25,359 bases of DNA from assembly GCA_030916785.1 (NCBI GenBank), contig JAUPVY010000001.1:1-25359 (forward strand), read 5' to 3'. Made by a program: the position numbers and the translations under genes. The notes under the pieces were generated by a model. It was not told where the DNA came from. It saw nothing but the letters and a program-made list of their open reading frames with translations, and made no database searches. This DNA is from Patescibacteria group bacterium. Lineage in GTDB: Bacteria > Patescibacteriota > Minisyncoccia > Phycocordibacterales > DATDWN01. Positions 8,075 to 18,154 of the stretch are shown here, in pieces (the first letter of the stretch is position 1; the number at the start of each line of letters is the position of its first letter).

Positions 8075-9163
8075 TTAGTATTCTGCTTTTACATATTGCT
8101 GATTTTTTGCCATCTGTAATTCAAGTTGGTAAACAACCGTTCTGTCTTCCAAGAAACTAAAGTTTTCAATAGCTGGATTCTTATATTTGTAATTAAAAAC
8201 TGCTGTCTTTGAGCCTTTTCCTGGATTTTCTTCCATAGCCTTAACTACATAAGTAGTCATGTCATAACCTAAAGCAGAAACATAATCTGGAGTGCCACTA
8301 AATTTTGCTTTATACATTGATGTATAATCCGAAGAAAATTGACTTGGAGCAATGCCTGGGGCAAAAGTTCCTTCCCCAAAAGATCCGAATTTCTCTAGGT
8401 TTTTATTGTCAACATCAACGAAAGTAATTGCTGTTCCTTTGAATCCAAGTTCTCGCAACTGTTTTACCACAGTCAAAGCATCAACCGGGTTATCCATCGT
8501 GACAAAAACTGAATCTGCTTTACTGGCAATTATTTTTGTAGCAAAAGTTCTATAATCACCGTTTGCATTTGGCACAAGTTCATTATAAACAACCGTGTAG
8601 CCAGCTGACGGTGCTTTTCTGACCATAGCATCTCGTGAATTTATTCCAAAATCACTGTTTGCATCTACAAGAGCCATCGTTTTAATACCTTTTTTCTGAA
8701 TCATAGGTACAACAGTATCAAGTTGTTTATCCGCGTTTGGGTAACCACAAAAAACGTTTGTGAGAGGCTTAAATGAATCACTACAGAAAGAGAAAGAAAA
8801 TACATCTTTATTTTCTTTCAAGGCAAGTGGGGCAACAGCAATTGTTTCGTCTGGTGAATATGTACCTATAATTACATCAACCTTATCTACATTCAAAAGT
8901 TTTGAAGCAGCACTTACTGCATCTGTTGGCTTTGAGTGGCTATCCTCCACAACAAATTTAACACCTTCCTTTTCTAACTGTGCTTGTGCAAGTTGAACAC
9001 CTTGATACAACTTTTCACCAGTTATAGAAAGATCGCCAGTGAGAGGGAGAATAACTCCAACCTTCAAACCAGATCCTTTAGTTGATGTAGGTTTATTTTT
9101 GAAAAAATAAATTCCTCCAACTACCACCAAAATAATAACTAAAATACCAACTATTTTTTTCAT
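8075..9163 (-). CDS. livK: LivK/LivJ-type ABC substrate-binding protein (copy 1)
   Basis: LKVGVILPLTG, EDSHSKP, VDVIIG patterns; N-terminal anchor. Confidence 0.8.
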   Translation of the reverse strand: MKKIVGILVIILVVVGGIYFFKNKPTSTKGSGLKVGVILPLTGDLSITGEKLYQGVQLAQAQLEKEGVKFVVEDSHSKPTDAVSAASKLLNVDKVDVIIGTYSPDETIAVAPLALKENKDVFSFSFCSDSFKPLTNVFCGYPNADKQLDTVVPMIQKKGIKTMALVDANSDFGINSRDAMVRKAPSAGYTVVYNELVPNANGDYRTFATKIIASKADSVFVTMDNPVDALTVVKQLRELGFKGTAITFVDVDNKNLEKFGSFGEGTFAPGIAPSQFSSDYTSMYKAKFSGTPDYVSALGYDMTTYVVKAMEENPGKGSKTAVFNYKYKNPAIENFSFLEDRTVVYQLELQMAKNQQYVKAEY

Positions 9164-9247
9164 ATTATAATTATAAATAGGTTAGTTAATAAATTATATA
9201 AAATTCTACTAACCAGTATATCAAAAAGTGGACATATTTATCAATGT

Positions 9248-9346
9248 CCGCCCGAGCCCCTCCGTCTCCATACCAATCCAAAGGAATCCGCGCGAAACAA
9301 ACCTTGCATGGATACGGCGGAGGGGGCGAGGGCGGACACGGAACAG
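9248..9346. repeat. Second copy of the GC-rich palindromic repeat; the GC-rich stem-loop zone continues to about 9420
   Basis: Exact inverted match to 1-99; internal pairing GTCCGCCC/GGGCGGAC; next hairpin CCGAGCACCGG-tact-CCGGTGCTTGG. Confidence 0.95.
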
Positions 9347-9473
9347 CGGGAACGGAGCCGAGCACCGGTACTCCGGTGCTTGGGCGGAGTGGACGCTGTG
9401 CCGTGGCGGAATTCCGTCGTTACATTTTAAAATTTTGTCGGAAATAGTTTCTAACTTGGTCGTATAGAGTAGC

Positions 9474-9554
9474 CCTTCGTCACTTTGTTCCTCATGGCCT
9501 TCGGCCGTGAGATATAAGTGAGACGAAGGTACTGATGCTGAGCAACGCGAAGCA
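9474..9554 (+). repeat. REP-like compound hairpins directly upstream of the GIY-YIG gene
   Basis: CCTTCGTC (9474-9481)/GACGAAGG (9522-9529) with inner stems, then TGCT-GAGCAACGCGA-AGCA. Confidence 0.6.
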
Positions 9555-9584
9555 GAAGTATCTTCCGGTTTTTATATCCTCCCT

Positions 9585-9830
9585 ATGTACTATACATACA
9601 TTCTAGAATGTGCGGATAAATCTTTTTATGTAGGTAGTACGAATGATTTGAATAGAAGGATTTTCCAACATAATAACAGTAAAAGTGGAGCACATTATAC
9701 AAAAATAAGAAGACCAGTCATTCTAATATATTCAGAAAAGTTTGATACACTGATTGAAGCCCGAAGGCGAGAATCTGAAATCAAAGGTTGGCGCAGAGAA
9801 AAGAAATTGAAATTAATAAAGTCTGGCTAG
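9585..9830 (+). CDS. Small GIY-YIG nuclease family protein (UPF0213-like)
   Basis: YYTYIL...FYVGST, conserved R and HN, AHYT, ARRRESEIK. Confidence 0.9.
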   Translation: MYYTYILECADKSFYVGSTNDLNRRIFQHNNSKSGAHYTKIRRPVILIYSEKFDTLIEARRRESEIKGWRREKKLKLIKSG

Positions 9831-9966
9831 TCATCCTGTAAGTTGTTCAAGACCTATCAATATAATGCACATACTTAAAACAGGTATTGAGTGTTTACAA
9901 GAGATTATATTGTATTTATGGTGCTTAATAAAAAGAACATGGGAATCCTTTTCTTTTATCAAAATT

Positions 9967-10584
9967 ATGAAAAATAAATTAATTATCAAAACTGTAGTTA
10001 TTTTTTTCTTTATTATTTCTTCCTTTTTGATGATGTATCCTGCATGTAAATCTTTAGTCATTAATGGTGGTTTAGGTTCTGGTAATTCTGTGGTTTTTTC
10101 TGTTAATTCACAAAATATTCAATCTATTCTCCGTCCGGTTGGTTTTCCAATAATATCAGAATTTGAAAGTTACAATATTGATATCTCTAATCTAAATAAT
10201 AAATATGATATTTCTTACATACTAACCTTCGATGATAATGATCCTATATTAAATTATATAGATAATATTGCCAGTTCATCAGAAGTAGGTATGACTGATA
10301 AAATAAATTTTCCAATAGCCCCTGGAAAATCTTACAAGGTCAAAGATATACCAATAAATATAGCAATGACAGATAAATTCGGAAGTCTGTCATTATGTGG
10401 GTTTAATTCTGCTACATCTAATTGTCCAAATAATCTAGAACAACTTATGGAAATAAGTCAAAAAAATATAAAAATTTTTGCTTGCCCTAATATTGAGCAT
10501 AGAATCTTAATTGTTGAGTTTATCTTAATTTGTGTGTTTTGGGTTTTGGCATTTAATAGTTTTTATGAATTTTTGAAGAATTAA
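9967..10584 (+). CDS. Hypothetical membrane protein with N- and C-terminal TM helices (start probably MKNKLII)
   Basis: Open AT-rich frame with two hydrophobic segments; start chosen before the first TM helix. Confidence 0.55.
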   Translation: MKNKLIIKTVVIFFFIISSFLMMYPACKSLVINGGLGSGNSVVFSVNSQNIQSILRPVGFPIISEFESYNIDISNLNNKYDISYILTFDDNDPILNYIDNIASSSEVGMTDKINFPIAPGKSYKVKDIPINIAMTDKFGSLSLCGFNSATSNCPNNLEQLMEISQKNIKIFACPNIEHRILIVEFILICVFWVLAFNSFYEFLKN

Positions 10585-10588
10585 AATA

Positions 10589-11203
10589 ATGGAAGATTAC
10601 TGGTATTACACCCTAAGTGCCATTCCTCAAACACTTGCTGCGGTAATTGCGTTGGCCGCTGCTTTTACTACACTGAAACTAGATTATATTTCAAAAATAA
10701 TAAAAGAAACCAGAATAGATTTACGTAGGTTTATATTGTTAACAACATCAAAGTTAGATATAAAAGAAATACACACAATTGAGCCATTAAGTGATAAGGA
10801 GTTTCTTAAAGTTTTTAAGGAGGGCCTATCATCCTTAGATGAGCACAATCATCAATTAGGATTAACATCTGACATGTTTAATAAGTATTCAGATGAAATG
10901 TTTAGAATAATCAATAAAGATTGGAACAGTAGATATGGTCCAGATGATTTTAGAGTTTTCGGTTATTTAAAGATGAAAAAGGAAATTTTTGAGAAATTGA
11001 TAGAACAAAAAGATGAGATAATTTATTTGATGACATCTAGTTTAATTTTAGTTGGTTTTGTAATAACAGTATCACTGATAATATTACCATCCTACAATTG
11101 TTTTAATGGTTCAAAATTATTAGTGTATGGTATTGTTACAGGCTCTGTTATAAGTATTATAGTAACAATATTGAGTATTTTGAAAATAGTGAAGAGTGAG
11201 TAG
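10589..11203 (+). CDS. Hypothetical membrane protein (1 N-terminal and 2 C-terminal TM helices)
   Basis: 204-aa ORF starting 4 nt after the previous stop; hydrophobic segments at both ends. Confidence 0.7.
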   Translation: MEDYWYYTLSAIPQTLAAVIALAAAFTTLKLDYISKIIKETRIDLRRFILLTTSKLDIKEIHTIEPLSDKEFLKVFKEGLSSLDEHNHQLGLTSDMFNKYSDEMFRIINKDWNSRYGPDDFRVFGYLKMKKEIFEKLIEQKDEIIYLMTSSLILVGFVITVSLIILPSYNCFNGSKLLVYGIVTGSVISIIVTILSILKIVKSE

Positions 11204-11213
11204 TAGAAATAGG

Positions 11214-11371
11214 AAATAGGGATAAGTCCAATTTAATAACAAAATCTGTGGCATATTAATTTAATATCAGAAATACTAGAAGTTCCTATTTGGTTAATAC
11301 AGTAAAGAAACAGGGAAGACCGAAAAAATCATGACACTTAGAATGACAAATAATTGGACTTATCGCTATTT
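11214..11371 (+). mobile_element. 158-bp MITE-like remnant with 20-bp terminal inverted repeats and a transposase-like C-terminal fragment
   Basis: AAATAGGGATAAGTCCAATT vs AATTGGACTTATCGCTATTT (19/20); 11290-11334 translates to LVNTVKKQGRPKKS*. Confidence 0.5.
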
Positions 11372-11438
11372 TCCATTTTCTCGAAAAGCCTTAAAAATAA
11401 GGATATTTTTCAATAACCAAATTACTCAATAAAAATAC

Positions 11439-11467
11439 TTGACAATATATTACTATGGTGGTATTAT
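11439..11467 (+). promoter_or_regulatory. Strong sigma70 promoter
   Basis: TTGACA-17 bp-TATTAT with an extended TG. Confidence 0.75.
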
Positions 11468-11524
11468 TATGTTGGCAAGTTCCTTACAGGACTTCCGAAT
11501 ATACATATATAAAGGAGCAGTATC

Positions 11525-11800
11525 ATGATCGCTACCGCTACGAGTGAATACCTCACCCTGTCGGGAGACACAGTTCACGTTGTCCTTGCTTCCGCAACCT
11601 ACGAGGGTGAAAAAATCCTGGATTGTCAGGAAATCAACGTTCGGCACCAGAAGGATGAGCTCAAGAAGCTCCTGGCTGAAGGTTGGAAACTCGTCACCAT
11701 CGCTTGGGTTCGTGACGAACACACCAATTACGGGCACGAACCTGCTGTCAACCATGTCCTGAGGGCCGTCGTAGTTCAGACGCAGAAGGAAGGAAACTAA
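11525..11800 (+). CDS. Hypothetical 91-aa protein, GC-rich
   Basis: SD AAAGGAG, upstream promoter, coupled to the next gene. Confidence 0.7.
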   Translation: MIATATSEYLTLSGDTVHVVLASATYEGEKILDCQEINVRHQKDELKKLLAEGWKLVTIAWVRDEHTNYGHEPAVNHVLRAVVVQTQKEGN

Positions 11801-11801
11801 C

Positions 11802-12164
11802 ATGGGAAAAGCAGGAGTCGAACCTGAAGTTCGCTACAACGTCCATTGTGTGGATTGCGGCAGTGTCTGGCAGCCACTTACCAAGAGTCCGCTCTGGTGG
11901 GCAGCCAAGCAACGGGCGGAAAAAGGTTTTCTCGATGCTCTTCATGTCAGCGGCAAGAAGTGCGGCTGCGTGAAAGAAGAGAGACAACCCAACGCTCCGT
12001 TCCGAGTCTTCGGCTACGATTTCGAGTGCCGAGACTTTGATATCCCATTCACTAACTTTGTGGGTGCCGTCAAGGCATTCATCGAGGCGAACAAGAACGG
12101 TGATGTCGTGTTTATCCAGGGAGTTTCGAGCTGTGTTGAACAGAGACTCAAGATGATTTTCTAA
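11802..12164 (+). CDS. Hypothetical 120-aa protein with a possible Zn-binding site
   Basis: HCVDC and KKCGC motifs; starts 1 nt after the previous stop; terminator follows. Confidence 0.7.
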   Translation: MGKAGVEPEVRYNVHCVDCGSVWQPLTKSPLWWAAKQRAEKGFLDALHVSGKKCGCVKEERQPNAPFRVFGYDFECRDFDIPFTNFVGAVKAFIEANKNGDVVFIQGVSSCVEQRLKMIF

Positions 12165-12166
12165 AC

Positions 12167-12220
12167 AGCCGCTTCACCACAGAGACCGCTTCATTGCAGT
12201 CTCGGGTGAGGCGGTTTTCT
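12167..12220 (+). terminator. Compound intrinsic terminator
   Basis: AGCCGCTTCACC/GGTGAGGCGGTT outer stem, GAGAC/GTCTC inner stem, then TTTTCT. Confidence 0.75.
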
Positions 12221-12268
12221 GTTGTCTAAAACTGAATTGTTTGAATATTCCTCCAGATGGACAACGCC

Positions 12269-12335
12269 GAATTTTAGCCATATTTCTCACTGTATAATTT
12301 TCTATATGTCCGGTGTTTTGAAACTTTGATATACT
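12269..12335 (+). repeat. Promoter-containing repeat, copy 1 (partial)
   Basis: 12289-12335 matches 14527-14573 at 36/47 by hand alignment; ends in TGaTATACT 6 nt before ATG 12342. Confidence 0.65.
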
Positions 12336-12341
12336 TAGACG

Positions 12342-12803
12342 ATGGAACAGAATCCAGAAATTAAACCACTTACATTTGATACATATCTCGCTGTTATTGA
12401 AAACAGTGTCGGTTCTTATATGTTTAAGAATTTATATATTTCAGTAGACGGAGAGAAAAAAGATGCGACTGAAGACGGATGGCTTTCATGTGCGTTTTAT
12501 GCCTCTTCTATTTTATATTTATTTAAATATATAACAGATATGCATGCGACAGTTAGTTCGACGGTGAAGGATCTGATAGGATCTGGATGGATTGAAATTT
12601 CTGAACCTGTAATTGGGAGTGTGATTGTTTGGAAATCAGGTGAGAATACAAATAATCATCGTCACATTGGTTTTTATGTGGGAGATGGTCTGGCAATAAG
12701 TAATGATTCACAGAAAAAACATCCATGGAAAGGGGATTGGAAATTTAATGGGAAAAGGGAAGTCGAAATGGTTCTTTGGAATCCTGATATTATGAAGAGA
12801 TAA
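12342..12803 (+). CDS. NlpC/P60/CHAP-like papain-fold hydrolase
   Basis: LSCAFY (Cys), GSVIVW and HIGFYVGDG (His) in the expected order. Confidence 0.65.
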   Translation: MEQNPEIKPLTFDTYLAVIENSVGSYMFKNLYISVDGEKKDATEDGWLSCAFYASSILYLFKYITDMHATVSSTVKDLIGSGWIEISEPVIGSVIVWKSGENTNNHRHIGFYVGDGLAISNDSQKKHPWKGDWKFNGKREVEMVLWNPDIMKR

Positions 12804-12851
12804 AGACTCCGTTTTGTGTTAGACGTCCAACCCTTTTATATTGCTGAAAAA

Positions 12852-12941
12852 ATATCTGACCCATATTAAATTAAGAATCTTATCCTTATGTACCAAGGTA
12901 TATTTTTATATCTACCAGATACTTTAGTATTTTGATACAAT
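12852..12941 (+). repeat. Promoter-containing repeat, copy 2
   Basis: 72/90 identity to 14485-14573 by hand alignment; ends in TGaTACAAT 7 nt before ATG 12949. Confidence 0.85.
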
Positions 12942-12948
12942 GTTTAAT

Positions 12949-13569
12949 ATGAATCTAAAAGAAACTTACAATAAATATATGGAACAAATCCTAGGTTTAC
13001 CAAACACTCCAGCAGAAAACTACGAGAAAAAATTTTCAAGATATATGGAATATTTCTCTTTAACTGATGAGGATCTAAATGATTCTATATTAGATGTGGG
13101 TTCGGGTTCTGGAGATTTTATAAAATATGTTAGAAATAAATTTAATAATACTCATGCTTTTGCTGTAGATAAAAGTGAGTCCAGAATGAAGCATGGTGGA
13201 GAGGGTATGGTTATTGCTGACGGCTTATCCTTGCCGTTTCCAGATAATACTTTTCAAACAGTCACGGCAAGAAATTTTATACCAATGTTTGTAAGTGAGC
13301 CAGAAAAGAGTAAAAAAGCAATCTACGAATTGATACGGGTTTGTAAGTCTCAAGGTAAAGTCATGGCTGATATTTCCTTGCCTGAAGGTGAAATTGAAGA
13401 ATCAAATAAAGCAATGTACAAAGGTAACATTAATTTTGCTAATTTTTTTGATGCTCGCATAAAAGGGGGAATAGAACTAGAGATGTTTTTTGAGGATTTG
13501 AAAAAAGAAGGTTATGATCTTGGAATTAAGAAAGGAAAAGAGTTTATTTTAACTATCCATAAACCTTAA
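12949..13569 (+). CDS. Class I SAM-dependent methyltransferase (start probably MNLKETY)
   Basis: ILDVGSGSG motif I, AVD, ADGLSLPFPDNTF. The ORF-track start 12940 overlaps the -10 box. Confidence 0.85.
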   Translation: MNLKETYNKYMEQILGLPNTPAENYEKKFSRYMEYFSLTDEDLNDSILDVGSGSGDFIKYVRNKFNNTHAFAVDKSESRMKHGGEGMVIADGLSLPFPDNTFQTVTARNFIPMFVSEPEKSKKAIYELIRVCKSQGKVMADISLPEGEIEESNKAMYKGNINFANFFDARIKGGIELEMFFEDLKKEGYDLGIKKGKEFILTIHKP

Positions 13570-13610
13570 ACAGGTTCCAACGTCGTACATTTTTTTGATA
13601 TAATAACTAC

Positions 13611-14378
13611 ATGGAAACATTTACATTTAATCCAATTGAATCTCCGGAAAACAAGCCGGTAAAAAAGGGGGAACTTGTGGACATACTCAAAGAAAAAGGT
13701 CCAACAGATCAAGGGGCAAGCACACTTCTTGAGAGATATGGAAATGAATGTGAAGCCCGATATAGAAGTGAAGGAAGAGCAGATGCTCGTTCAGAATCCC
13801 TTCGAGAGATGGCTCATGCATTAAGTCAGGCAGGGTTTTTTCAAGAAGCGATTAGTTATATTGACACTGTTATTGAAATTTCAATACAAGAAGATGATAC
13901 TGAATCTCTGGACGAGGCACAGTGGATTAAAGGAAAACTTGAAGAGAAAATTCGTGAGTCAAAACCGACGGAAACAAGAGAAGAAGTGACTAGTAATGAA
14001 TCTGCCGAGAAAGTCTCTCGAGAAGAGGTTCTGAATGCGTATAAAAAATTAGCAATAAAGGCAGGTGATCCTGCGGGTTTAGATAGGAGTGACCCAGAAG
14101 TGGCGGCTGCCGAAAGACTTGAACAGACATGGCAACAACAGGGAGATGTAGAGACACAAGATGATGAGGATGCACGATTAAGACATAATTTTGAAAAAAC
14201 AATGCTCTATGTTGATGCGGGTTTTCATGACCCTGAATACCTTAAAGATGTTCTTGGTTGGCTTGCTCAGGATGCTGGTGATGCAAATAAAGATACTGAA
14301 AATCCTTCTCGTGTGGCATTAAAACATGATATGGCAGAAGCAATGAATAAAATCAGGTCACTCCTTGGATCTGCTTGA
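13611..14378 (+). CDS. Hypothetical acidic alpha-helical protein, possible TPR-like segment
   Basis: 255-aa ORF with an extended -10 box 6 nt upstream; I recognise no family motif. Confidence 0.75.
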   Translation: METFTFNPIESPENKPVKKGELVDILKEKGPTDQGASTLLERYGNECEARYRSEGRADARSESLREMAHALSQAGFFQEAISYIDTVIEISIQEDDTESLDEAQWIKGKLEEKIRESKPTETREEVTSNESAEKVSREEVLNAYKKLAIKAGDPAGLDRSDPEVAAAERLEQTWQQQGDVETQDDEDARLRHNFEKTMLYVDAGFHDPEYLKDVLGWLAQDAGDANKDTENPSRVALKHDMAEAMNKIRSLLGSA

Positions 14379-14484
14379 GAGTGGTGATGGTGTTTAAGTA
14401 CTCATCCTAGATGACCAGTCAACTCGTGTGATACTTGAGGTGTATCGGAAAAAGAATCTATAAAAATACTAAGACAAATCAAAG

Positions 14485-14573
14485 ATACCTGATCTTATTA
14501 AATTAAGCACTTTACCCTTATTTACCAACGTATATTTTTATATCTATCAGGTGCTTTAGAACTTTGGTATACT
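14485..14573 (+). repeat. Promoter-containing repeat, copy 3
   Basis: Matches 12852-12941; internal IR ACCTGAT/ATCAGGT; ends in TGgTATACT 6 nt before ATG 14580. Confidence 0.85.
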
Positions 14574-14579
14574 GATAAA

Positions 14580-15131
14580 ATGAGTATTGAAATAGAAACG
14601 AGGTTTTTAGAAATAGATAAACAAGAATTAATCTCAAAATTAAAGACTTTTAATGCTATTGATAATGGAGAAGTTAGACTGGATGAAATTATTTTTTATG
14701 ACAAAGATTTGACATGGATGAATGAGAATAAATTTGTCAGACTTAGAAAAAAGAATAAAAATATAAAATTGACTTTCAAAAGTAATAAAGAACAGAAAGT
14801 TGATAGTGCTAAAGAAATAGAATTTGATATTTCTGGTATAGAGGATGCCAGACTGTTTTTGGAAGCAATCGGATTAGTTCAATATAGGATTGTTGAAAAA
14901 TATAGGCATACATTTAGACTTGGTAATGTTACTTTGGATATAGATACTTGGCCAAAAATTCCAGTGTATGTTGAACTTGAAGGTGATTCTGTTGAGGAGT
15001 TAAAGAAAGTTGCAGATATGCTAGGTTTTGACTGGGGGAATCGTTTTGATGCGGACGCTCGATATGTTTTCAAGAAGTATGGCTTTGATTTTGATAATAT
15101 TAAGACTATAACATTTGATGTATTTAAATAA
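14580..15131 (+). CDS. CYTH domain protein (class IV adenylate cyclase/triphosphate tunnel metalloenzyme)
   Basis: N-terminal EIETRF (ExExK/R), VRLR, LTFK, EIE, KYRH, YVELE. Confidence 0.9.
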   Translation: MSIEIETRFLEIDKQELISKLKTFNAIDNGEVRLDEIIFYDKDLTWMNENKFVRLRKKNKNIKLTFKSNKEQKVDSAKEIEFDISGIEDARLFLEAIGLVQYRIVEKYRHTFRLGNVTLDIDTWPKIPVYVELEGDSVEELKKVADMLGFDWGNRFDADARYVFKKYGFDFDNIKTITFDVFK

Positions 15132-15132
15132 T

Positions 15133-15648
15133 ATGGAAGGACCAAAATTTGAAAATCAAAATAGTGAGGTAATAATTGAATCTTCTGATATTATTTTTAA
15201 TCCAGAAAGCGGTTTAGCCATGGTAGTGATAAAACCTGATGCTTTTAAGAATAAAGATCAAATAATAAGAAGGATTGAGAATTCGGGTCTTTATGTGGTT
15301 AGCACAAAGACTCGTAAATTGTCGGAAAGCTTTGTAGCAAATGTCATGTACAAAGATTTACCGACAGGGATAAAAGGAGAAACGATAAAACATTTTAATG
15401 ACGGACCGTCAGAGATTGTATTGGTCAGAGGAGGTGAAGATATTATTCAAAACATTATTTCTTTAACTGGAGAAAAAACAAACCCCCATGAATGTTCACG
15501 GGATAGTATCAGATATATATTTGGTGAACATTTTGGTAGGGAAGTGGGTGATGATAAAAAATATTTTCGTAATGCAATCCATAGAGCAAAGGATACAAAT
15601 GAACAAAAAGATGACCTAGAAAAGTTTAGGGATATATCTTTATCTTAG
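15133..15648 (+). CDS. Nucleoside-diphosphate kinase-like protein with an atypical active-site loop
   Basis: VIKPDA, GP, SIR, RNAIH; the usual HGSD is replaced by HRAK. Confidence 0.75.
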   Translation: MEGPKFENQNSEVIIESSDIIFNPESGLAMVVIKPDAFKNKDQIIRRIENSGLYVVSTKTRKLSESFVANVMYKDLPTGIKGETIKHFNDGPSEIVLVRGGEDIIQNIISLTGEKTNPHECSRDSIRYIFGEHFGREVGDDKKYFRNAIHRAKDTNEQKDDLEKFRDISLS

Positions 15649-15734
15649 GTGGTTGCGAATTTGCTAGAGATTTTTACAGATCATGCTGTTTGGGTTTAAG
15701 ATAATTAGTAATATAATAGATACTATTACATATT

Positions 15735-16250
15735 ATGGCGAATAAAATAGTTGTCGTTACGGATAAAATGCAGAAAAGGTACAGGTACGCTCTTTCCGAA
15801 CCAATGGGTAAACATTTTGATCCTCGGTTTAGACCTGATCTTACTCCTAAACAAATGCTTGCTCTCGGTGTTTTTGGTGGGCGGTATATGCGAGATTGCC
15901 GGAAAGAATTTCCTAAAGATTGGTTTACCCATGCAAAATTTTTGCCCGAGGGGATGAAAAAACCAGATAAAAAGTTGAATTATTTTGGTGTACATGCCTC
16001 ACAGTCTCTGGCAGAATGGAGAAGGAAAGGATGGATTCGTCCACAAGATCCACGAGGATGGTTTCAGTGGTATTGTCGTTACTATATGGGTAGACGGAGT
16101 GATGATGACGAAAGACAAATAAAAAGATGGCGTTTAATCACACGACACGTATCACAAATAGCGAAACATTGTCGAGTGGGAGATGTGTCTTGTCGCCCAA
16201 AACAAAGACAAGCAGTGCTTCATTGGGCGTATGATGCACGAAAGATTTAA
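15735..16250 (+). CDS. Conserved hypothetical basic, Trp/Arg-rich protein
   Basis: LTPKQMLALGVFGG, NYFGVHAS and DPRGWFQWYCRYYMGRR..DDERQIKRW, recalled from an uncharacterised family. Confidence 0.85.
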   Translation: MANKIVVVTDKMQKRYRYALSEPMGKHFDPRFRPDLTPKQMLALGVFGGRYMRDCRKEFPKDWFTHAKFLPEGMKKPDKKLNYFGVHASQSLAEWRRKGWIRPQDPRGWFQWYCRYYMGRRSDDDERQIKRWRLITRHVSQIAKHCRVGDVSCRPKQRQAVLHWAYDARKI

Positions 16251-16258
16251 TCAAATAC

Positions 16259-16510
16259 ATGTCTACAAAAAAACTTTCTACTGGAGCGGTGCATAAAATA
16301 CCAACTGACTTTCGCACAGCGATTGAGTCTGATCCTGTGGTAAAACGTGTTTGGGCAGATATCACACCACTTGCTCGTAACGAATGGATTTGTTGGGTGA
16401 TATCTGCTAAAAAAGATGAAACAAGAGGTCGTCGTATAACAGTCGGTCTTGATAAAATGCGTAAAGGTATGCGCAGTCCATGCTGTTGGGCCGGCTGTCC
16501 TCACCGGTGA
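16259..16510 (+). CDS. YdeI/OmpD-associated family protein
   Basis: IPTDFRTAI...ARNEWICWVISAKKDETRGRRI; C-terminal CCWAGCPHR. Confidence 0.8.
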   Translation: MSTKKLSTGAVHKIPTDFRTAIESDPVVKRVWADITPLARNEWICWVISAKKDETRGRRITVGLDKMRKGMRSPCCWAGCPHR

Positions 16511-16538
16511 TTAATATATTCTATAAATTCAAATTAAT

Positions 16539-16868
16539 ATGAGTAAAATATATAAGATATTTATACATGCACTTCCTGTATTATGTATGGTTGCATTAAT
16601 TCCTGTTGTTACAAATGATTATATTCTCACTTTTATATATATCGGTATCATTATTTTATCCATGAAAATCAAACGGGAGAAGGGTGATTTGATTGTTCTA
16701 TCTTTCGGATTTATAGCAATGATTGTGTTTGAGTATTTATTTGTTAGTACAGGGGTTGAAGTATTTATTAGGAATACATTGTTTGGTTTAATGCCACTTT
16801 GGTTGCCTTTTCTATGGGCATATGGATTTGTCGCGATAAAACGAGGAGTTAAAGTTTTGGGTGAATAA
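16539..16868 (+). CDS. Small multi-pass membrane protein
   Basis: 109 aa, about 4 hydrophobic segments, MPLWLPFLW motif. Confidence 0.75.
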   Translation: MSKIYKIFIHALPVLCMVALIPVVTNDYILTFIYIGIIILSMKIKREKGDLIVLSFGFIAMIVFEYLFVSTGVEVFIRNTLFGLMPLWLPFLWAYGFVAIKRGVKVLGE

Positions 16869-16882
16869 TTTGTGGTGAGAGT

Positions 16883-18154
16883 TTAATAGTTGTGGGATTT
16901 TTGCCCTGCATGCGTGCCTGCGACGTAGCCAGTTGTCCAGCATAACTGCAAACTGTACCCACCTGATGGTCGGTCAATGTTTAATACATCGCCGACAACA
17001 TATAAATTTGGATACAAACGAGAACTCATGGTTTTGAAATCTACTTCTGTGAGATCAATACCACCACTTGATACAATGGCTTTGTCGGCACCAAGCAAAC
17101 CTGAAACTGTCATAGTGAGGTTTTTAAGTGTTGTGATAAGTTTCAATCTGTTGTCACGGGTGATGCTGTGGACGAGGGTTTCTGGATCAACACCAGTCAA
17201 CTCTAATACAATTGGGACAAGTGCAGAGGGGATCATTTCTCCGAGACAATTTTTAATTTTCTTTTTGTTTTGCTGTTTGAAAAAATCTTGCAAATGAAGG
17301 TTGAGTTTGTCATGACCAGAGGCGGGGAACAAATCAAGCGATACGGTTACATCACCGTATTTTAATAATTCACCAATATCTTTACTCATATTCAAAACTG
17401 TCGGTCCGGAAACACCAAAATGAGTAAATAAGATTTTTCCTTTTTTAACACCTTGTTTCTGTCCATCTTGGAGAAGGGTTATTTTGACACTAGGTATTGT
17501 TACCCCTTGGAGTTTTTTAACCCATTCGTCTTTGATAGCAACAGGAACTAATGCGAAACTCGGTTTGATGATAGTGTGACCAATATTTTTAAGCCATGTA
17601 AATCCATCGCCAGTTGAACCTGTTTCCGGTCGGGACAGACCACCCGTTGCAAGAATAAACATTTTGGCTTTGATTTCTGTGCCATCTGCCAGCACCACAG
17701 CACTTATTTTGTTTTCTACTGTTTTTAATTTTGAAACAGGTGAGTGGGACAATACAGTAACATGTTGTTCTCTCAGGTATTCTAAAAGCACATTGAGTAC
17801 AGACTGGGATTTATCGCTTGTGGGGAAGACACGTAACCCGGGTTCTATTTTTGTTTCCATTCCGCGAGAATTAAAAAACTGAAGTGTTTCGGCTACAGCA
17901 AACTGGGCAAATGTAGAGAATAGGAACTTTCCATCAGATTTGAATTTTTCTAATAGTGTTCGTACATCTTGTTCGGCGTTGGTGACGTTACAGCGACCAC
18001 CACCTGTAATGAGTAATTTTTTACCGAGAGCATCATTTTTTTCAAGTAATATAACACGGGCACCGTGTTGCGCTGCTGTTCCTGCGGACATCATGCCGGC
18101 TGGTCCACCACCAATGACTGCCACATCCCATATTGTATTATCTAGATTATTCAT
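16883..18154 (-). CDS. HI0933/YhiN family FAD-dependent oxidoreductase
   Basis: IGGGPAGM, GKKLLITGGGRCNVTN, LATGG, LFTHFGVSGP, GGYSLQLCWTTG. Start at 18154, 6 nt after TGgTAGAAT. Confidence 0.93.
   Translation of the reverse strand: MNNLDNTIWDVAVIGGGPAGMMSAGTAAQHGARVILLEKNDALGKKLLITGGGRCNVTNAEQDVRTLLEKFKSDGKFLFSTFAQFAVAETLQFFNSRGMETKIEPGLRVFPTSDKSQSVLNVLLEYLREQHVTVLSHSPVSKLKTVENKISAVVLADGTEIKAKMFILATGGLSRPETGSTGDGFTWLKNIGHTIIKPSFALVPVAIKDEWVKKLQGVTIPSVKITLLQDGQKQGVKKGKILFTHFGVSGPTVLNMSKDIGELLKYGDVTVSLDLFPASGHDKLNLHLQDFFKQQNKKKIKNCLGEMIPSALVPIVLELTGVDPETLVHSITRDNRLKLITTLKNLTMTVSGLLGADKAIVSSGGIDLTEVDFKTMSSRLYPNLYVVGDVLNIDRPSGGYSLQLCWTTGYVAGTHAGQKSHNY

Follow-up and report, generated by a model that had tools for sequence, protein, structure and literature searches.

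The 25,359-nucleotide contig JAUPVY010000001.1 of a Patescibacteria group bacterium (the whole of this stretch, contig C46 of its assembly, is called the window) was found to contain three copies of a repeated promoter region, here called the module, in front of unrelated genes. The copies (A, B, and C) lie in an array of 13 small co-oriented genes, which occupies 7.4 kb of the + strand (9474..16895). In our study, the module is probably a leaderless promoter that was reused within a hypervariable array of self-expressing genes, and not a dedicated recombination site. An earlier note on this DNA had proposed that the same promoter-bearing repeat stands before unrelated, apparently leaderless genes and that it acts as a recombination module. 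The first part was supported, as the resemblance among A, B, and C was above that of null promoters. The second part was not upheld; the breakpoints between relatives were independent of the module, most of the units were devoid of it, and no recombinase was found in the open reading frames (ORFs) of the window that were scanned. The assembly, obtained from a freshwater metagenome, consists of 576 kb in 88 contigs and is 73.5% complete with ~38% GC. The best-matching proteins bear the names Parcubacteria, Candidatus Paceibacterota, Candidatus Zambryskibacteria, and, in the ESM Atlas, Minisyncoccota, which would make the organism one of Parcubacteria/Paceibacteria type.

Module copy A was found at 12258..12341 of the + strand, where an AT-rich distal part is followed by the extended -10 box TGATATACT (12327-12335), 6 nucleotides (nt) before the ATG at 12342. 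Copy B covers 12827..12948 of the + strand (module 12848-12948), with the extended -10 box TGATACAAT at 12933-12941 and the start codon at 12949; its 5' end, at about 12827-12847, is a remnant of a terminator 3' half and its T-run. Copy C was found at 14481..14579 of the + strand, with the extended -10 box TGGTATACT at 14565-14573, 6 nt before the ATG at 14580. The copies precede a gene of 153 amino acids (aa), a methyltransferase gene, and a CYTH-NDK unit, respectively. A repeat search of the window gave 81% identity between B and C across 84 nt (12864-12947 and 14496-14579). When each copy was compared by blastn with the whole assembly, the B-C match (E value 8e-10) was the only one found. 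In the register of A 12269-12335, the identity was 53/67 (79%) for B-C, 50/67 (75%) for A-C, and 44/67 (66%) for A-B; the 77–80% previously given for the copies holds for B-C and roughly for A-C, but not for A-B.

As all promoters of this genome share the -10 region, the null set was built from its other leaderless promoters. In 83 of these, the 68 nt located 5' of the TTTG/extended -10 box were compared in register and without gaps, and a mean of 19-20 of 68 positions was alike (28–30%; standard deviation about 4, maximum 31). Over the same 68 nt, B-C shared 56/68 (82%), A-C 43/68 (63%), and A-B 39/68 (57%), and a copy from another genome of the genus (G024) shared 38–44 of 68 positions with A, B, and C. 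All six pairs among these four sequences (38–56 of 68) were thus above the null maximum of 31/68, and local-alignment scores ranked the copies in the same way. In the core, copy A was 71% identical to C and 73% identical to the G024 copy. Two models were used for searching, a sequence-only model of the full-length repeat (R1) and the same model without the -10 part (R2); copy A scored 75.8 bits with R1 and 59.7 bits with R2, and copy C scored 84.9 and 61.6 bits, respectively. Since copy A lies far above the null promoters, it is, on these comparisons, a genuine but distant member of the family.

The distance between the end of the extended -10 box and the ATG was 6 nt in A, in C, and in the gene starting at 13611, and 7 nt in B, which places the start of the methyltransferase gene at 12949 rather than at 12940. 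The box was reported earlier to lie 6–7 nt before the genes, and this was borne out, yet it is a trait of the whole genome. Among 534 long ORFs, TGNTANNNT was found before the first ATG 39 times at spacing 6 and 18 times at spacing 7, as compared with mostly about 1–3 times at other spacings (9 at spacing 8 and 13 at spacing 9). The promoters share TTTGNTATAMT. As this geometry is genome-wide, the 3' end of the repeat is nothing special. Upstream of 538 long ORFs G was depleted, and no Shine-Dalgarno signal was found there. Because the -10 box ends 6–7 nt before the ATG, transcription should start at the start codon, and we infer that leaderless mRNA is the norm in this genome. Most of the array units have their own -10 or extended -10 box 5–8 nt before the ATG, as read from the sequence. 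A short version of the module had been proposed for the gene at 13611. Its promoter (13590..13610, + strand; TGATATAAT at 13596-13604) scored 13–18 against the copies in local alignment, which equals the null mean; it is a generic leaderless promoter and not a copy of the module.

In Actinobacteria and Deinococcus-Thermus, leaderless genes are found with a -10 box directly before the start codon. The genes studied here resemble them in the genome-wide -10-type hexamer 6–7 nt before the ATG and in leaving no space for a ribosome-binding site. They differ in belonging to a Parcubacteria-type genome and, as far as the DNA tells, in the strong TGN extension and the repeated distal region. Within the literature available for searching, nothing turned up on leaderless expression or comparable arrays in bacteria of the candidate phyla radiation (CPR).

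The gene content of the array was compared with contigs of relatives (L036, L037, L039, and L047-L051), which were found via proteins 96–97% identical to the 153-aa protein. Contigs of other runs (X5, X6, and X11 among them) were aligned to positions 9000–17500 of the window, and RNA runs were used as assembled contigs. Close relatives, 90–98% identical in the shared parts, were found to contain different gene sets at the array locus; the identity and order of the downstream genes thus vary between strains, as had been suspected. These differing gene sets and the breakpoint positions described below are what is new here. The window contains, in order, GIY-YIG, 239-aa, 204-aa, 91-aa + 120-aa (high GC), 153-aa, methyltransferase, 255-aa, CYTH + NDK, 171-aa + OmdA, 109-aa, and HI0933-like (minus strand) genes. 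The order in L037 is 134 / 250 / 91 / 113 (minus strand) / 80 / SET / Exo_endo_phos / 134 / 153 / 83 / 248 / 255 / CYTH, and in L039 it is 68 / Exo_endo_phos / 153 / 83 / 136 / 255 / 171 + OmdA / SET + ASCH / HI0933-like. In L051, a 64-aa gene follows the 153-aa gene, and in L049, where the 153-aa protein is 85% identical, the context is altogether different. The common flanks are the left anchor (9250-9473, 97% identical) and, on the right, the HI0933-like and helicase genes (90%). In wastewater and other populations, sequences 90–97% alike covered the 153-aa, 255-aa, CYTH, NDK, 171-aa, and OmdA genes, and the methyltransferase gene and the high-GC pair were left uncovered. The methyltransferase gene had zero depth in X5, X6, and X11, which hold the neighbouring genes. 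The CYTH-NDK unit was absent from the L039-type array, in which the 255-aa gene is joined directly to the 171-aa gene, and in a contig of the independent run X5 position 14384, at the end of the 255-aa gene, is likewise joined to 15709, at the 171-aa gene's promoter.

The breakpoints were found at a gene's own core promoter (0–44 nt ahead of the start codon) or just past a stop codon, whether the module was present or not. The homology stops exactly at 9473, and in L037 the ATG of another gene, which encodes 250 aa, starts at the next base. A second breakpoint lies about 27–44 nt before the ATG at 12342 of the 153-aa gene, and a third, at 12804, is one base past the stop codon. The homology with L037 and L039 resumes at 13593/13594, and this breakpoint (13593) is 17 nt before the ATG of the 255-aa gene, which is preceded by three different genes in the three arrays. 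Further breakpoints were found from 14383 to about 14410 (5 to 30 nt past the stop codon), at 15711 (against L039), 24 nt before the ATG at 15735, and at 16508 in the OmdA stop codon, where the homology with L039 ends. From these positions, the unit of change consists of a core promoter, an ORF, and a short 3' flank. The junctions are close to the promoter but at no fixed position relative to it. The description of the locus as a gene-cassette array is thus appropriate in that gene-sized units vary, but not in that the repeat would be the common junction element, as most of the units have no module.

Besides the genome itself, 41 genomes from the genus and 150 from the order were searched for the module. 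In its own genome, R2 found only A, B, and C, all within one 2.3-kb stretch and on one strand. In the 41 genomes of the genus, R1 found one strong copy outside the window (G024:C4:11163-11258), which directly follows a tRNA-Gln gene and heads an unrelated gene of 162 aa, whose match to DUF6886 is sub-threshold. The scan of related genomes that had been called for therefore yielded a copy at another locus, whereas the genome itself holds only three. Weak R1 matches in the genus and the order (G004, G095, G114, G079, and G126) were rejected, as R2 recovered none of them; matches that are lost without the -10 part are not family members. In the relatives of the window, R2 found the module only before the 153-aa gene and before CYTH, and copy B before the methyltransferase gene was found in this genome only. 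At least 10 other units in the window and the relatives use other promoters.

Compared over the core, copy C was 90% identical to its L037 orthologue and 85–88% identical to the module that heads the 153-aa gene in the relatives. Copy A was only 61–62% identical to that module, though the gene behind it is 94% identical. Since the copies group by type and not by downstream gene, the distal promoter before the 153-aa gene is, by these identities, one that was exchanged between the lineages. On its 5' side, copy B stays homologous to the terminator and module heading the L037 153-aa gene for 21 nt beyond the point where its homology to C stops; as this homology reaches the 3' half of the terminator and the T-run, copy B looks to have been copied from a terminator-plus-module block. 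In L039 and L051, the module is cut to about 65 nt and directly follows the preceding stop codon. A search of genome contigs with CYTH gave one distant locus, a CYTH homologue in another metagenome-assembled genome (MAG; 62% aa identity), which was preceded by a terminator and a generic promoter, and no module was found there. A search of metagenome contigs with the 153-aa protein gave one distant locus without the module. A joint between 12902 and 14536 in the RNA run X6 is in register; it was not counted as a B-C recombinant, because only 23 nt stand on one side and because the relatives' module before the 153-aa gene is B/C-like and would align in the same way.

In the reading that we favour, the module would be one promoter variant that was copied or swapped by ordinary recombination before at least four unrelated genes, namely the 153-aa NlpC/P60-like gene, the methyltransferase gene, CYTH-NDK, and the DUF6886-like gene of another species. 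It may have spread by local duplication, by conversion between copies, or by exchange, guided by homology, with the DNA of related lineages. The family would comprise promoter regions of 65–100 nt, in which an AT-rich distal part precedes the extended -10 box; a 12-nt inverted repeat encloses the distal part in some of the copies. The array would consist of self-contained units, each with its own core promoter, ORF, and short 3' flank, and its variation would result from recombination with related DNA and selection for intact self-expressing units. Because the start signal is flush with the ATG in each unit, a gain, loss, or replacement between a stop codon and the next -10 box spares the neighbouring genes, and this would explain why the breakpoints cluster there. 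Over 4958 nt, contig L031 of a co-occurring strain differed from the window by 20 substitutions only, which all lie in a 172-nt tract inside the CYTH gene (window positions 14738-14909), and 20/20 correspond to the L037 allele. The tract looks like a short imported recombination tract, in which homologous exchange between lineages is directly visible.

Several points weigh against this reading. B and C share at most 17 consecutive identical nt, a short stretch for homologous recombination to work efficiently on the copies. The source study supplied eight Logan contigs, all with the same gene order at 99.6–100% identity. The label hypervariable is based on short conserved flanks, of ~0.2 kb on the left and 2 kb on the right. 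The leaderless starts and the promoter activity are predictions from the spacing. The recurrence of a C-rich 3' motif at unit ends, with one indel breakpoint inside it, could point to a site-directed process, and a recombinase gene may have escaped an assembly that is 73% complete. A control for turnover outside the array, made with the DUF1003 protein, gave a nearest long-contig relative that was 83% identical and not syntenic, and the other species of the genus were too diverged for a synteny comparison.

The C-rich 3' motif was found at 14386..14438 of the + strand, directly after the stop codon of the 255-aa gene, with the core ACTCTCCCAGA..CCAG.CAACTCGTG. Searches with nhmmer and with model R3 placed it right behind the stops of the 255-, 83-, and 80-aa genes, and also upstream of the relatives' 68-aa gene and after the module-headed 162-aa gene of G024. 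The sites are L037 3265-3320, 6117-6168, and 7850-7899, L039 710-747 and 2654-2705, and L009 2084-2133. In the genus search, only G000 and G024 scored well. The CYTH-NDK indel starts inside the motif, and the divergence between the 248- and 136-aa genes starts at its end. Folding showed that the motif is less structured than shuffled sequences (z +0.6 to +1.9). As a speculation, it may serve as a terminator-type signal that is C-rich and unstructured, or as a site for recombination. It is the chief ground for keeping an integron-like, site-directed process in view.

A broader reading, which we regard as possible but doubtful, is that Parcubacteria-type bacteria would maintain a chromosomal exchange site, where leaderless units (promoter flush with the ATG, ORF, and C-rich 3' motif) are traded between lineages. 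In that case, insertion would be guided by the module and the 3' motif as the conserved ends of the units, and the site would be a functional counterpart of integrons without a common promoter, with an unknown recombinase or with none.

It is unlikely that a site-specific recombinase, unseen or of unknown kind, moves the units at the 3' motif or at the inverted repeat of the module in the manner of an integron. Integrons contain promoterless cassettes with a structured attC end, an IntI gene beside attI, and a common Pc promoter. The array is like them in its one-strand, mostly single-gene units, its fixed chromosomal site, and its content, which varies unit by unit between relatives. The presence of the 3' motif right after the stop codons of several unrelated units, the CYTH-NDK indel that begins in it, the flanking of the same G024 gene by motif and module, and the confinement of both repeats to the same two lineages of the genus also speak for such a process. 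However, each unit has its own promoter, many units carry neither repeat, the breakpoints are at no fixed position relative to either repeat, and the 3' motif is unstructured, unlike attC. Integrase, resolvase, and transposase domains were searched for in the array ORFs and in most of the flanking ORFs, all but a few near the window ends, and none was found; no intI, attI, or attC-like site was found. The 73%-complete assembly contained one tyrosine recombinase (PF00589), on another contig (C72), and no resolvase was found in it. The window had been described as free of an integrase and of an attC consensus, which agrees with these scans. None of the integron features examined (IntI, attC, and promoterless cassettes) was found in the array.

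The inverted repeat gives further evidence against site-directed movement. It was described earlier as an internal repeat with a compensatory change. The repeat itself is present in copy B (12849-12860 and 12914-12925) and in copy C (14482-14493 and 14546-14557). Across these two and the full copies of the relatives, 89.6% of the cells pair, as compared with 31–40% when the partner is slid. Among four sequences, one pair was changed on both sides, but the shuffle control gave 252/500, and the covariation is thus not significant. The left arm was absent from copy A, from the G024 copy, and from the truncated copies in L039 and L051. The folding energy of copy B was no better than that of shuffled sequences (z -0.3 to -0.6), and RNA folding of the copies showed no significant stability except for one sub-fragment of C. 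No conserved small ORFs were found inside the repeats, no flanking direct repeat was visible at the copy ends, the Rfam scan of the whole window gave no match at the gathering score, and the tRNA scan of the window found none.

About as improbable is a shared operator or regulon, in which selection keeps the ~90-nt region because one regulator and an UP-like element control the genes together. The distal part is kept in register in all copies, including that of the other species, at a level like that of coding DNA between genomes; the inverted repeat brackets the -35/UP region, and the genes behind the strong copies are small enzymes. Against this, ~80% identity over ~90 nt far exceeds what a binding site needs, and no candidate regulator was identified. 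In addition, the CYTH homologue of the other MAG has no module, the module variant was exchanged before 153-aa genes that are 94% identical, and the weak order-level matches to the full model vanished without the generic -10 part.

It is very unlikely that the three copies arose once in the 2.3-kb stretch and have only drifted since, as a purely local old duplication without portability. Their position within 2.3 kb on one strand, with no other copy in the assembly, and the fixed gene order in the source population would fit this, whereas a further copy stands in another species, where both the locus and the gene behind it are different. In the relatives, the 153-aa gene and CYTH are headed by the module and the methyltransferase unit is missing, and copy A resembles the G024 copy more than it does the module of the orthologous gene. 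That AT-rich promoters should resemble each other by chance is hardly credible, for although the region is AT-rich, the promoters share a -10 sequence, and the claim for 13611 came down to just that, the six pairwise identities above the null maximum and the B-C blastn match leave it already refuted for A, B, and C.

Compared with other known systems, the array is like the morons of temperate phages, which are autonomous promoter-gene-terminator units inserted between genes. Both consist of self-contained expression units with boundaries in the intergenic spacers, which leave the neighbours undisturbed. Unlike morons, the units are chromosomal, stacked in series, and headed by leaderless extended -10 promoters, and there is no phage context; PHROGs and NCBIfam searches of the array proteins gave no phage functions and no PHROG structural or replication matches. 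Features of miniature inverted-repeat transposable elements were not seen either; there was no target-site duplication and no partner transposase, and the copies were not dispersed. Promoter-bearing miniature repeats such as Correia, ERIC, and REPIN are named in a commentary (PMC3575422). The module shares with them a short intergenic repeat, an inverted repeat, and an outward-facing promoter, whereas it has 3 copies per genome and its arms are internal, weak, and missing in several copies. Putative mobile promoters are defined by an identity of 80% or more across 50 nt or more ahead of non-paralogous genes, and their survey covered -150 to -50 from the start codon, mostly missing the -10 box (Matus-Garcia, Nijveen and van Passel, 2012; commentary PMC3575422). 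By this definition, the B-C pair (81% over 84 nt, non-paralogous proteins) is a putative mobile promoter, whereas copy A (57–65% to the other copies) and the G024 copy are below the cut-off. Putative mobile promoters resemble the module in being similar non-coding sequences before unrelated genes, shared with another taxon and without a known mobile element. The module differs in that it extends as far as the start codon, owing to the leaderless look of the genes, and in that its copies are in tandem within a variable array.

The genomes of ultra-small CPR bacteria are tiny and show few mobile elements that can be recognised, and it is poorly understood how these bacteria gain and express new genes. 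If a promoter ends at the start codon, then a gene with ~20–90 nt upstream would be a complete portable expression unit, and the promoter part could be copied or exchanged independently of the gene, as the reused module shows. If transcript mapping confirms the starts, leaderless expression would be extended to this phylum, and a concrete, testable model would be available for the turnover of accessory genes without classical mobile elements.

All genes from 9585 to 16868 were on the + strand, in agreement with the one-strand arrangement stated before. The genes behind the copies had been called NlpC/P60-like, methyltransferase, and CYTH + NDK, and called unrelated; the last two labels were confirmed by Pfam, whereas the first is based only on neighbours in the ESM Atlas. 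The 153-aa gene (12342..12803, + strand) belongs there to a cluster named 'NlpC/P60 domain-containing' (score 0.99), and the protein had no Pfam, NCBIfam, or PDB match. Its orthologues in the relatives were 96–97% identical (aa), and a paralogue (73.5% aa) was found on contig C28. The methyltransferase gene (12949..13569, + strand) encodes an S-adenosylmethionine-dependent enzyme (Methyltransf_11/25) and was found only in this population; among 5.8 billion proteins it had no close relative except itself, and a paralogue on C19 was 47.5% identical (aa). CYTH (14580-15131) and NDK (15118-15648) form an overlapping two-gene unit (14580..15648, + strand). No match was found by blastp among the proteins encoded behind the copies, and a PDB sequence search with three proteins of unknown function gave nothing. 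The 255-aa gene (13611..14378, + strand) is of unknown function with a sub-threshold TPR match only, and its protein was 89–92% identical (aa) to those of the relatives. The unit of the 171-aa gene and OmdA (15711..16510, + strand; ATG of the 171-aa gene at 15735) was 96% identical (nt) to L039 4010-4807, as compared with 90% for the flanking HI0933-like and helicase genes. Second copies elsewhere in the genome were 67.5% identical for the 171-aa gene (C70), 48% for OmdA, and 44% for GIY-YIG. Such diverged second copies of the 153-aa, 171-aa, OmdA, methyltransferase, and GIY-YIG genes are as expected for imported extra copies.

The left anchor (9250..9473) is conserved in the relatives, at L036 3228-3451 and at L037 607-787. 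A perfect 99-nt inverted repeat was found at 1-99 and 9248-9346, and its right arm overlaps the anchor block. To the left of the anchor, L036 contained a type I restriction-modification system, whereas the window contained a branched-chain amino-acid transporter. A contig of the source sample departs from the anchor at 9473 into other sequence, and the GIY-YIG segment (9473-9997) had a contig depth of 8.7 as compared with 12–16 for its neighbours; the array start may be polymorphic within the source population. The 91-aa and 120-aa genes (11439-12222) had 52% GC and expression signals unlike those of the rest of the genome; the promoter is a perfect TTGACA-17-TATTAT with TG, the leader is ~55 nt long, a ribosome-binding site (GGAG) is present, and the terminator is a GC-rich hairpin. 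The hairpin with its T-run (12165..12222, + strand; terminator-like site 12199-12212) looks like the intrinsic terminator of this pair. The pair was absent from the arrays of the relatives, and about 43 kb of the assembly consists of patches with 50% GC or more.

In the wastewater relatives (X6 and X11), the 255-aa gene was found to be 360 nt shorter in frame, with a joint between 13650 and 14013; 362 nt (13651-14012) are skipped and 2 nt stand between. In the 171-aa gene, the contig depth at 15816-16099 was several-fold above that of the neighbours in X1, X6, and X11, with many partial joints, and its homologues seem to be common in many community members. The slot behind tRNA-Gln was also variable. 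In G024:C4 (L009 1362-1600) it contained the module and the 162-aa gene, whereas in G000:C19 (L007 515-1450) a high-GC insert was found from about 65 nt past the tRNA, with a partial repeat of the tRNA 3' end. Behind the insert come ~130 nt that include a canonical promoter and a terminator and gave no Rfam hit, and the methyltransferase paralogue stands next.

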